From the IMG/VR virus record IMGVR_UViG_2698536428_000011: DNA of 2,349 bases. One strand, written 5' to 3'. This document shows positions 1-2,349 of this stretch, piece by piece (the first letter of the stretch is position 1; each line of letters opens with the position of its first letter). The notes below the pieces were generated by a model. That model worked only from the letters and a program-made list of their open reading frames with translations. It did not search any database and was not told the origin of the DNA. The position numbers and the translations under genes are program-made. The stretch comes from a virus (taxonomy: Duplodnaviria > Heunggongvirae > Uroviricota > Caudoviricetes).

Positions 1-555
1 TCATTTATCTCCGACCGGAAACTTCTTATACAAAGTCGATACGCCAACATCATAAATGATCGCCACCTTCTGGCGAGGAACTCCTGATGCAATTAGTCGC
101 CCGGCCTGCGCCCATTGTTCTGGTGTAAGTTTGGGACGACGTCCACCAATTCGTCCCTGTGCGCGAGCAGCTTCCAGTCCAGCTTTTGTTCGTTCAACAA
201 TCAGTTCTCGTTCCATTTCAGCCAGGGCACCCATCACATGAAAGAAAAAGCGCCCCATTGGGGTACTAGTATCAATTGAATCCGTCAGACTACGAAAGTT
301 GATGCCTCGTTCGCGCAACTCCTCAACCAGAATGACCAGATGCCGCATACTACGCCCCAGCCGATCCAGCTTCCAGACAACCAGAGTGTCACCTGCCGAT
401 AATGTCCTGAGCAGTTTTTTCAGTCCAGGCCTTTCGGACTTTGTACCGCTTATCTTGTCTTCAAAAATCAGCTCGCATCCTGCACAGTTCAGCGCATTAC
501 GTTGTAGATCTGTGTTCTGGTCATTTGTTGACACACGTACATAGCCAATAAGCAT
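1..555 (-). CDS. pin: Serine DNA invertase, Pin/Gin/Cin/Hin family site-specific recombinase
   Basis: ORF track 1..591 minus. Translation has the serine-recombinase N-terminal catalytic motif GYVRVSTNDQ (Ser codon at 529..531) and a C-terminal helix-turn-helix-like region (GRRPKLTPEQWAQAGRLIASGVPRQKVAIIYDVGVSTLYKKF). Start placed at ATG 553..555 (MLIGYVRVS...), which has GGGAG 7 nt upstream, rather than the in-frame ATG at 589..591. Stop TGA at 3..1. Symbol given from recalled similarity to e14 Pin, not from a search. Confidence 0.9.
   Translation of the reverse strand: MLIGYVRVSTNDQNTDLQRNALNCAGCELIFEDKISGTKSERPGLKKLLRTLSAGDTLVVWKLDRLGRSMRHLVILVEELRERGINFRSLTDSIDTSTPMGRFFFHVMGALAEMERELIVERTKAGLEAARAQGRIGGRRPKLTPEQWAQAGRLIASGVPRQKVAIIYDVGVSTLYKKFPVGDK
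405..475. promoter_or_regulatory. Candidate Fis-dependent recombinational enhancer inside the invertase 5' coding region
   Basis: In Hin, Gin and Cin systems the enhancer lies within the 5' part of the invertase gene and has two Fis sites about 48 bp apart. Here GCAGTTTTTTCAGTC (411..425) fits the G-N13-C, AT-rich-centre Fis pattern, and a second A-tract element (457..472, GTCTTCAAAAATCAGC) sits about 47 bp away but matches only partly. Position and motifs are suggestive only. Confidence 0.3.
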
Positions 556-609
556 GGTAGATCTCCCTGACAAAAGCAGGAATGATGCCATTTGCTCGTT
601 ATTTCTGCA

Positions 610-635
610 TTTTCATAAACGTTGGTTTGGGAGAA
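610..635. repeat. Inversion crossover site, invertase-proximal (pix/gix/hix-like 26-bp site)
   Basis: Imperfect dyad TTTTCATAAACG-TT-GGTTTGGGAGAA. Its right half-site is the exact reverse complement of the left half-site of the site at 2326..2349. The 16-mer TTGGTTTGGGAGAAGC (622..637) recurs inverted at 2324..2339. AAAC/GGTTT arms around a 2-bp core are typical of Hin-family crossover sites. Confidence 0.75.
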
Positions 636-995
636 GCGGCAAAACGAAATGTGGGAACAGGGGAAAATCAGATACCGGACATGGCTTCATTTAGTGGGGT
701 GAGGGATTATTACGGAAAACAACTTTTGCCAGGAGGGTTGATACTTCAGTGGCTGACGATTCCATCAAGTGCAGCAGCCAAAGCTGTAACACTGAATAAT
801 GGTAATTATCAGCTGTCAGGCTATAAATGGCCCCAGTCATTTGGTGTCCTGTTTGCTGTGTTTGCTACAAAAGTTTCTGGCTCGACTAACGAAGCATATG
901 CAATCTCAGTTAATCGTCACTCTACCGATGTAATTGTCACCTGGAATGCCCGTAAGGCTGATGATGTCCACATTTTAGGAGTTGGGAAATTATGA
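610..995 (+). CDS. Tail-fibre C-terminal variable cassette, silent copy (Sv'-like); no independent start expected
   Basis: Plus-strand frame is open from the crossover site (ORF track starts at ATG 582 in the invertase leader) to TGA 993..995. The crossover site encodes the junction peptide NVGLGEA, matching LENLGLGEA on the other arm. Ends in an ATGA stop/start overlap with the downstream Tfa-like gene. By analogy with Mu S/S' and e14 it would be expressed only after inversion fuses it to the constant fibre N-terminus. Confidence 0.65.
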
Positions 996-1411
996 AAATG
1001 AAATGGTCCCCATCTGTTCAGGGATTTTTCTCTGAAAATAACAGCGATATTCCCGATGATGCTTTCGATATTGAAGATGCTCTTTATTATGAACTTATGA
1101 ATGGTCAGAGTACGGGGAAAATTATTATCAATAACCCGGATAACTACCCTGTACTTACTGAATATCCAGCGAAGACACAGGAACAGGAAATAGCTGAAGC
1201 GGAGGGAATGAAAAGTATACTTATTGAACAGGCCAACGAATACATGAACAGTAAGCAATGGCCTGGTAAAGCCGCTATTGGTCGTCTGAAAGGTGAGGAA
1301 CTGGCGCAATATAATTTGTGGCTGGATTACCTGGACGCACTGGAACTGGTCGATACTTCCGGTGCGCCAGATATTGAATGGCCTACGCCTCCGGCAGTTC
1401 AGGCCAGATGA
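992..1411 (+). CDS. Tail-fibre assembly protein (Tfa / gpU-like chaperone), silent-cassette copy
   Basis: ORF 992..1411, 139 aa. ATG overlaps the upstream stop (ATGA at 992..995), with AGGAG at 976..980. C-terminus ...[19 protein letters not shown] carries the conserved Tfa C-terminal motif (VDTS-APDIEWP). N-terminal region ([23 protein letters not shown]...[14 protein letters not shown]) resembles Tfa-type chaperones. Confidence 0.8.
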
Positions 1412-1646
1412 CGTCCGGCGCGGTGCTGGTATCTGATTCCATCACCGCGTCGATATTACCAACATCATATTCAGTCATTTCCGGTTCCGGTGGTGCTATA
1501 AACTCTCCGTCAGAATAGAACCAACCGACGCCTGCATCTATATCATCAATATTTATAATTTCGCAGTTAGAGAATAAATCACCCTCTCCATCCCAGATAA
1601 TAATATTTTTCACCACGCCATGTTCAATCAGAGCAAAATTACTCAT
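1383..1646 (-). CDS. Short Tfa-like tail-fibre assembly/chaperone protein, copy in the currently fused cassette
   Basis: ORF 1383..1646 minus, 87 aa. ATG overlaps the stop of the upstream fibre frame (TGATG), with GAGGAG 8 nt upstream. C-terminus ...[18 protein letters not shown] carries the Tfa C-terminal motif. Much shorter than typical Tfa proteins, so the functional call is tentative. Confidence 0.6.
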   Translation of the reverse strand: MSNFALIEHGVVKNIIIWDGEGDLFSNCEIINIDDIDAGVGWFYSDGEFIAPPEPEMTEYDVGNIDAVMESDTSTAPDVIWPELPEA

Positions 1647-2349
1647 CAGGCATACTCCTCAACAATAACTATTCCCGGGGCACCGTCACCTCCCGATTGA
1701 GCCTCACTTCCGGCAGGTGCGCAGGCTCCGCCTCCGCCAGCACCAAAGCCCTCAGCTTTACCACCACCACGTCCGCTGAATGATGAAGAACTTGCACCAC
1801 CTATACCGCCTGAACCTAGTGGTGTATCCCCCCCGGTACCACCTGCAACAGCTTTAACAGAGATAACCATTGCTCCTGGTGTTTTTGCACTACAGCGAAA
1901 TGCTCTTAGTACAGTACCGGACGATGTCGGACTGGCACCCCATGAAATACCCTGAATATATGATGTGTTTGCAGATGCTCCCCCCGCGCCACCGCCTGTA
2001 CCACCCGGTGCAGTTATCAGGGAACCGAAATAAGTTGTGCCACCTTCACTACCTGAATTTCTTCCGGCTCCCCCCCTTTACCTGCAGCACCGATAATAAC
2101 GTTGACTTCGAAATCATTATCAACCTCGAAAAATGCTTCAATAAATGCACCGCTCAATCCAGCTCCGGCTGTTGCCTGCTGATTTGCTGTTGTTTCAGGA
2201 ACCCCACCGCCGCCGCCACCGCCACCAGAGGCAATGACCCTTATCTTTTTTGTCCCTGGTGTTGGGATATATTTTCCAGAGCTTTTAAAAATATTCGTGT
2301 TTAACAAACGACCAGAGAATCTGGCTTCTCCCAAACCAAGGTTTTCGAG
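1646..2349 (-). pseudogene. Tail-fibre C-terminal variable cassette (Sv-like), partial at window edge, reading frame broken at a G7 tract
   Basis: One minus-strand frame is open from the window edge through the crossover site (LENLGLGEARFSGRLLNTNIF...SGGGGGGGGV...GAAGKGGEPEE...) to TGA at 2019..2017. A second frame is open from 2077 to TGA at 1648..1646 and encodes Gly-rich fibre-like sequence (...TAPGGTGGGAGGASANTSYIQGISWGASPTSSGT...GGTGGDTPLGSGGIGG...EEYA) coupled to the Tfa-like gene. The frames meet at G7 on the minus strand (C7 at 2070..2076); one extra G would give a continuous cassette of about 234 codons. Could be a true frameshift, programmed or slippage-based decoding, or a homopolymer sequencing error. 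Confidence 0.55.
2326..2349. repeat. Inversion crossover site, invertase-distal, truncated by window end
   Basis: TTCTCCCAAACC-AA-GGTTTTCGAG (last 2 bp of the 26-bp site would lie beyond 2349). Its left half-site is the exact reverse complement of GGTTTGGGAGAA at 624..635, placing it in inverted orientation to the 610..635 site. The minus-strand fibre frame reads through it in frame. Confidence 0.75.

Follow-up and report, generated by a model that had tools for sequence, protein, structure and literature searches.

Recurrent length changes at a poly-G tract in the glycine-rich tip of an invertible tail-fibre cassette in Escherichia coli prophages

Does the tip of a phage tail fibre that is already exchanged by DNA inversion also vary through the repeats in its own coding sequence? 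The question is raised by a 2,349-nucleotide stretch of DNA (hereafter the window; IMG/VR virus record IMGVR_UViG_2698536428_000011) that is 100% identical to positions 1379230-1381578, reverse strand, of the chromosome of E. coli JNEC-KY208 (NZ_AP045181.1) and that carries the invertible tail-fibre segment of a prophage. One of the two cassettes in this segment, cassette B, encodes the Gly-rich C-terminal part of the fibre on the minus strand (1646-2349), made up of a TNF-like and a glycine-rich domain (PF21722), and is frameshifted here. The original prediction, made from the window's letters, pointed to two G7/C7 tracts (1828-1834 and 2070-2076, the latter at the frame break) and to a run of eight Gly codons (2203-2226), and proposed that such repeats would allow length or frame variation independent of inversion. 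On the evidence below, which is comparative throughout, we put at roughly three in four the probability that a real hot spot of slipped-strand mispairing lies at 2070-2076 and has put this fibre tip out of action; the idea that several tracts act as devices of variation proved overstated, as only one of them is clearly hypermutable.

A direct reading of the sequence agrees with the prediction on the position of both G7 tracts (each C7 on the plus strand) and on the frame break at 2070-2076. This is the single break in cassette B: the upstream open reading frame (ORF) runs in frame 0, and downstream of the tract the native frame is open to its stop at 1646-1648. The window's tract is the -1 allele of a G8 tract (AAA GGG GGG GGA, K-G-G-G), G8 being in frame and G7 and G10 out of frame, and the shifted frame runs into a premature stop at 2017-2019 on the minus strand, leaving a truncated product that measures 219 aa from the start of the fibre, a point beyond the window. 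Adding one G at 2070-2076 gives a 343-aa protein that is residue-for-residue identical to P0015 (67 contigs), and the exact truncated 219-aa product (P0135) is found on 6 other contigs. Frameshifted copies can also be recognized by a 74-aa ORF (1646-1870, minus strand), the in-frame C-terminal remnant of cassette B, which is gene-called only if the upstream part is frameshifted; it was counted on 50 contigs and, in a separate retrieval, in 110 blocks, and we used it as a marker for such copies.

Tract lengths were then compared among homologous cassettes in a total of 57 full-length copies, with L numbers denoting individual copies. The cassette is present in 35 of 5426 complete E. coli genomes, 27 of which were fetched; further copies came from contigs with the 74-aa remnant ORF, from contigs with intact P0015, and from pattern scans of IMG/VR and metagenomes that were anchored in the flanks and allowed any tract length from 3 to 14. 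At the 2070 tract G8 is modal (18 of 26 non-self complete genomes and 15 of 18 scan hits) and goes with an intact ORF in copies that have no other lesion. G7 is found in the window, L013, L020, L021, L029-L032 and L034-L037, G10 in L033 and L038, and G5, an in-frame loss, in L026, while the form GGTGGGGG, with a synonymous interruption (GGG to GGT), marks one clade in which none of the nine sequenced copies is frameshifted at the tract. In each of the ten loci reached via the 74-aa remnant ORF, the frame is broken at the 2070 tract and nowhere else, by G7 in eight and by G10 in two. The original prediction had named identical tract lengths in all homologues as the sign of ordinary coding for Gly-rich structure; at 2070-2076 the lengths differ.

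When haplotypes are tabulated over all substitution sites of the cassette, the window's cassette haplotype occurs with G7 nine times, with G8 seven times and with G10 twice; L032 (G7) has the same haplotype as L009 and L068 (G8), and L020 (G7) the same as L065 (G8). Out-of-frame lengths thus share at least three cassette haplotypes with G8, no other substitution being involved, and these differing lengths on identical haplotypes imply at least four credible independent length changes at the 2070 tract. As a scale for the comparison, the 34 intact copies of equal length have 24 polymorphic codons over 226 codons, 13 of them synonymous-only and 11 amino-acid-changing, which suggests that intact cassettes are under purifying selection. 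In the window's own prophage type the comparison extends over 3.1 kb, and here one haplotype carries both G7 (L029, L037) and G8 (L040, L041) with no other difference between them, a pattern that is compatible with reversion but no proof of it. A second 3.1-kb haplotype, two single-nucleotide polymorphisms (SNPs) away, is G7 throughout (window, L030, L035 and L036), and L034, one SNP off, is also G7; the G7 allele is heritable.

The remaining tracts behave differently. The G7 tract at 1828-1834 (ACC GGG GGG GAT, T-G-G-D on the minus strand, read in frame as part of G-G-T-G-G-D) is G7 in 55 of the 57 copies and G6 in L013 and L021 only, and is essentially invariant, with no credible variation. 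A G6 tract at 1980-1985 (GCG GGG GGA, A-G-G, minus strand), which was not in the original list, is shortened to G5 in L006, L013 and L026 and is G6 in all other copies; the G5 of L006 is possibly a genuine single event. The eight Gly codons at 2203-2226 on the minus strand were correctly counted and placed, but they are not all GGY: the run reads GGT GGC GGT GGC GGC GGC GGT GGG, that is, seven GGY codons and a final GGG, in GGTGGC-type hexamer repeats (a 6-nt unit repeated 3.8 times according to TRF). It has seven codons in L012 and L016 and ten in L031, all in frame, eight in the other intact copies, and 24 nt in all 16 scan hits that span it. A (GGT)3 repeat at 1760-1768 (G-G-G, minus strand), likewise absent from the original list, shows an in-frame 3-nt deletion in one genome, L011. 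Slipped-strand mispairing rises steeply with run length, and a single hot spot at the longest homopolymer together with rare in-frame changes in the repeats fits this steep dependence. Variation independent of inversion, as originally proposed, therefore holds for the 2070 tract (G5, G7, G8 and G10 on otherwise identical cassettes) and, as occasional in-frame variants, for the Gly run, but not for the tract at 1828.

At the start of the Gly run, L016 (strain G6/7) differs from L004 (strain G1/2, from the same study) by a cluster of substitutions and a 3-nt deletion at ~2221-2236, by which VIASGGGGGGGG becomes VINFCGGGGGG; the remainder of the cassette is near-identical in the two, and the difference could be local repair, gene conversion or an assembly artefact.

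What the Gly runs are for is indicated by the family and fold of the domain that they belong to. The repaired cassette matches Pfam PF21722 (Gly_rich_2) with 33.1 bits, above the curated cut-off of 24.3, with residues 25-228 aligned to positions 9-224 of the 226-position profile. In an AF2 model of the 343-aa repaired protein, pLDDT is mostly above 90 (block means 66-98) over residues ~121-343, and Foldseek matches the model to the fibre protein gp24 of cyanophage Pam3 (7ypx_A; E = 5.7e-9, TM 0.45 for the query and 0.60 for the target; also 7yfw_a), to tail-tip proteins of the mycobacteriophage Bxb1 (E ~1e-8) and to the glycine-rich domains of ALK/LTK (E ~1e-3). The Pam3 fibre begins with N-terminal helices, which are followed by a TNF-like domain and then by stacked motifs that make up a glycine-rich domain; -GGGGxGG- lies in the central loops of this last domain and forms its core, and receptor binding has been proposed for the variable distal tips (PMC9608196). 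Across 30 aligned homologues, the Gly8 run falls on the conserved (V/I)GGGGxGGG motif, the GGGGxGGG and GAGGGG columns are invariant or nearly so, and the K-G-G-G-A-G at the frame-break tract lies in a more variable segment. Given this motif conservation and the predicted match to a Pam3-type domain, the Gly runs are first of all structural. Cassette B is predicted to encode the receptor-binding tip of a short prophage tail fibre.

The likeness to Pam3 gp24 (PDB 7YPX / 7YFW) covers the helices, the TNF-like beta domain, the glycine-rich domain with -GGGGxGG- and a small gene immediately downstream, which encodes a chaperone in Pam3 and a putative chaperone here. In contrast to Pam3, the host is enterobacterial, the sequence identity is only ~24%, and the domain sits on an invertible cassette, which at least three prophage backbones exchange. 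More distant kin of the Gly-rich tip are S16 gp38 and the ALK/LTK glycine-rich domain. Sequence searches of NCBIfam and the PDB with the cassette returned no matches, nor did a distant blastn search of phage-collection DNA.

The course of events that we favor is as follows. With Gly written in GGG codons, the gene contains G homopolymers, the longest of them G8 in the intact allele, and in E. coli populations this G8 has undergone repeated, independent changes of length, probably through slipped-strand mispairing during replication. The window's -1 allele, G7, shifts the frame so that translation stops 17 codons on and most of the tip is lost in the expressed orientation; the truncated fibre is probably non-functional, and the outcome would be an off state of one fibre type that does not depend on inversion. 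The tract is in principle still long enough for reversion, although nothing in the data shows it to be kept for that purpose. The shorter G7 and G6 tracts are essentially stable, and the GGY repeat at times gains or loses whole codons.

Several observations weigh against reading the window's G7 as a real and recurrent frameshift. Out-of-frame alleles are a minority in unbiased samples, found in none of the 18 viral and metagenome pattern-scan hits and in 3 of the 34 other complete genomes, so that the in-frame share is 18 of 18 and ~31 of 34; two of these three G7 calls are suspect, coming from assemblies rich in homopolymer deletions; and homopolymer length is the base call most prone to error in any technology. 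It could be held that G7 in the window is a miscalled G8 and that the gene is intact in the real strain. Homopolymer under-calling is common, every 1-bp change in the complete genomes is a deletion, and L013 and L021, which we discounted, each combine G7 with three to five other single-base homopolymer deletions. (A private-indel screen over the 2.7-kb loci confirmed the extra deletions in L013 but misses shared or differently placed gaps, such as those in L021, whose error-suspect status comes from the tract comparison among complete genomes.) However, the same G7 allele is present in at least eight other assemblies from different projects, including short-read drafts on the window's haplotype and five that match it over 3.1 kb or are one SNP off; the exact 219-aa product recurs, as noted above; no further frameshifted gene is found in ~90 kb around the site (50 kb of core genome and the other 40 kb of the prophage); and G10 alleles exist, which under-calling cannot explain. 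A miscall is accordingly very improbable. That the runs are ordinary Gly coding with no meaningful variability is an apt description of the tract at 1828-1834, invariant outside the error-suspect assemblies, and largely of the tract at 1980-1985 and the Gly8 run, the Gly runs being conserved structural motifs; but it fails for 2070-2076, with its five length or sequence states on identical backgrounds, and as an account of the cassette as a whole we consider it improbable. Hardly credible is the proposal that the frame is restored during expression, with transcriptional slippage or a -1 ribosomal shift on G7 producing some full-length fibre: the only point in its favor is that a -1 shift on GGG GGG G would regain the native frame, whereas the zero frame offers no heptamer of the canonical form X XXY YYZ (no search was made for a stimulatory structure downstream) and G8 is the common allele, so that G7 looks like a mutant rather than a programmed site. 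Programmed recoding at the G7 run was rejected on these two grounds. General decay of the prophage as the cause was also dismissed, since all other genes of the 42-kb element are intact.

A further alternative accepts the frameshift but sees it as an evolved contingency locus, in which G8 has been selected as a reversible on/off switch, a second stochastic layer beneath Pin inversion that would make the choice one between fibre A, fibre B switched on and fibre B switched off. Part of its appeal lies in the clustering of the G runs. Under a dinucleotide shuffle of the whole window, two G7 runs against 0.43 expected are not significant (22 of 200 shuffles reach two), but we judged this control too blunt and replaced it by a synonymous-codon permutation that keeps the protein. 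With the cassette's own codon counts, the intact allele's G runs (8, 7 and 6) cluster beyond expectation, with P = 0.006 for finding three runs of 6 or longer and P = 0.002 for the number of bases that such runs comprise; if Gly codons follow the usage typical of E. coli, however, these measures are marginal (P = 0.04-0.08). For comparison, 50 kb of adjacent core genome contain only three G/C runs of 6 or longer, none of which reaches 8. The contingency locus also draws on the occurrence of both contractions and expansions (G5, G7 and G10), on the four or more independent events without linked substitutions, on the otherwise intact prophage, whose constant fibre part is 97% identical to that of the isolated Escherichia phages vB_EcoM-683R1, 611R5 and 606R2, and on the presence of G7 in the inverted orientation too (in L031, whose prophage is of the window's type, and in L032, whose backbone is P2-like). 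A precedent exists in Campylobacter phages, with polyG in receptor-binding genes (Sorensen et al. 2021, Cell Rep 35:109214, cited in PMC10877375). Against it stand the rarity of off alleles in unbiased samples; the lack of long-term conservation of the tract, judged on six more distant Gly-rich IMG/VR homologues that have almost no long G runs at equal Gly content and equal or higher GC; the clade that lost the tract by synonymous change from GGG to GGT and has no frameshifted copy among nine; and the finding of no association between tract state and cassette orientation. G8 stands at the low end of switch-like tract lengths in a mismatch-repair-proficient host. We therefore treat a selected switch as a tentative possibility that is doubtful on present evidence, and rank no higher the fuller scenario of an intact, inducible-type E. 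coli myovirus prophage with a single tail fibre, in which Pin inversion picks the tip and a nested hypermutable G8 toggles the Gly-rich tip reversibly. Were it true, a mismatch-repair-proficient enterobacterium would harbour a phage receptor-binding gene under a polyG contingency switch.

The slipped-strand hot spot thus remains our preferred reading, and it can be set beside known systems of two kinds. Campylobacter is a host with pervasive polyG phase variation, and polyG switching in its phages has reportedly been shown by experiment. The tracts of the Campylobacter Fletchervirus phages lie in receptor-binding protein genes and are described as hypermutable (Sorensen et al. 2021, Cell Rep 35:109214, as cited in PMC10877375). 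The tract described here resembles them in that a run of G lies within a phage gene for receptor binding and sets the reading frame by its length, turning the product on or off; it differs in belonging to a temperate phage of E. coli, in its purely comparative evidence, in the minority share of its off alleles and in its lack of conservation among relatives. With the simple-sequence-repeat contingency loci of Neisseria, Haemophilus, Campylobacter and Bordetella (for example PMC1891110 and PMC5084427) it shares an intragenic homopolymer, length polymorphism among near-identical strains and a truncating frameshift; those bacterial loci are switches, whereas the 2070 tract is known here from the comparison of sequences.

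The second kind of known system is inversion. Invertible fibre segments of the Din family include Mu G/Gin, P1 C/Cin, e14 P/Pin and p15B Min. The window's segment shows every Din-family trait that was checked, namely an adjacent serine invertase, inverted crossover sites and the occurrence of both orientations, and like the classical segments it has its invertase next to a pair of opposed cassettes, both of which combine a fibre C-terminus with an assembly gene, between short inverted sites. The difference is that the classical systems vary host range through inversion alone, and the homopolymer frameshift in one cassette is an extra layer here, which the classical description does not include. 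The invertase gene, pinE (1-555, minus strand), is identified by annotation and by profile matches to Resolvase (1.3e-51) and HTH_7 (3.7e-14), and the two 21-nt crossover sites lie at 617-637 (left) and 2324-2344 (right) as inverted repeats of one another with 95% complementarity. Between them, opposed to cassette B, is the alternative cassette A (585-1411, plus strand), composed of a fibre C-terminus (585-995), for which a weak Gp53-like_C match is reported, and a tail-fibre assembly protein (992-1411; Caudo_TAP, 2.6e-23). Cassette B is at present joined to a 117-aa constant fibre part just to the right of the window; among the copies compared, 35 are joined to the constant part and 16 adjoin the invertase.

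Inversion is active on laboratory time scales, as can be seen from strain UC4224 (L007) and UC4315 (L018), which is described as a mutant of UC4224 and has the segment in the opposite orientation: UC4224 has the Gly-rich cassette connected to its 1743-bp fibre gene, and in UC4315 the cassette adjoins the invertase. Three draft contigs (L035, L036 and L037) break off at the right crossover site or close to it, their ends lying ~450-480 nt upstream of the 74-aa ORF, as would be expected if the reads of these cultures held both orientations. The same Gly-rich cassette, 96-100% identical, is moreover present on three prophage backbones (L001; L002 and L004; L003, L007, L010 and others), which are the window's myovirus type (Phage_Wedge1 and the 117-aa constant part), an e14-like type (ymfQ/stfP) and a P2-like type (tail protein I and the 1743-bp fibre), and the companion cassette and the tfa genes also vary between them; one cassette on three backbones implies cassette exchange at the crossover sites.

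Din-family inversion, the PF21722/Pam3 fold class and polyG in receptor-binding genes of Campylobacter phages are already known. What appears to be new is modest: a frame-setting polyG tract in the fibre of an E. coli temperate phage, nested in an invertible cassette that is found on three backbones, with recurrent length change. On a conservative view, this is a recurrent and heritable frameshift site in a widely shared cassette, which bears on whether a fibre is called intact or defective. If G8 switches at a useful rate, the host range of E. coli prophages, or a tailocin-like killing range, would vary beyond what inversion-based surveys capture, and annotation would keep mislabelling a phase-off fibre as a dead pseudogene. 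Irrespective of the tract, a Pam3/ALK-type glycine-rich receptor-binding domain is documented here as an invertible cassette that circulates in enterobacterial prophages.

Directly 3' of the Gly-rich part, cassette B contains an 87-aa ORF (1383-1646, minus strand) that is a probable small fibre-assembly chaperone. It matches only the C-terminal part of Caudo_TAP, and weakly (E = 0.005, below the curated cut-off), and its synteny is kept in all loci. The genes for the two assembly proteins converge and share 29 nt at their 3' ends (1383-1411), and both proteins have a similar terminal motif, which suggests that the short 87-aa ORF retains a conserved Tfa C-terminus.

The element around the window is a complete-looking prophage of ~42 kb: the integrase gene stands at one end, genes for replication, lysis, terminase, head, sheath, tube and baseplate follow, and the fibre and the invertase come last. 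The fibre is its sole pseudogene, every other gene being intact, and it carries one IS2 elsewhere; this IS2 copy lies at 11413-12641 of L069, in the early region of the otherwise intact prophage, and the IS2-bearing prophage of this strain may be non-inducible despite its complete structural module. Outside the window, ~1.1 kb past pinE, a C8 run is found in the intergenic region between yfhH and a hypothetical gene (L001, 3202-3209), a possible natural control tract for the slippage rate in the same genomes.

The cassette is also disrupted at sites other than the tract. In L008 (EC23-1020) it is knocked out by a nonsense change from AAA to TAA (F to stop) at the equivalent of window position ~2285, and in L010 by a deletion that turns A6 into A5 at the equivalent of 2246-2251; there are thus several routes of disruption, and about one third of the fetched complete genomes have a disrupted cassette. 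In the 27 genomes inspected, the Prokaryotic Genome Annotation Pipeline (PGAP) fragments the fibre gene in those that are frameshifted and in those otherwise damaged. In L027, an otherwise degenerate copy of the cassette, 17 nt (ATATTACCAACATCATA) are inserted at the junction of window positions 1753 and 1754; the inserted sequence is identical, in inverted orientation, to window positions 1453-1469 inside the 87-aa ORF.

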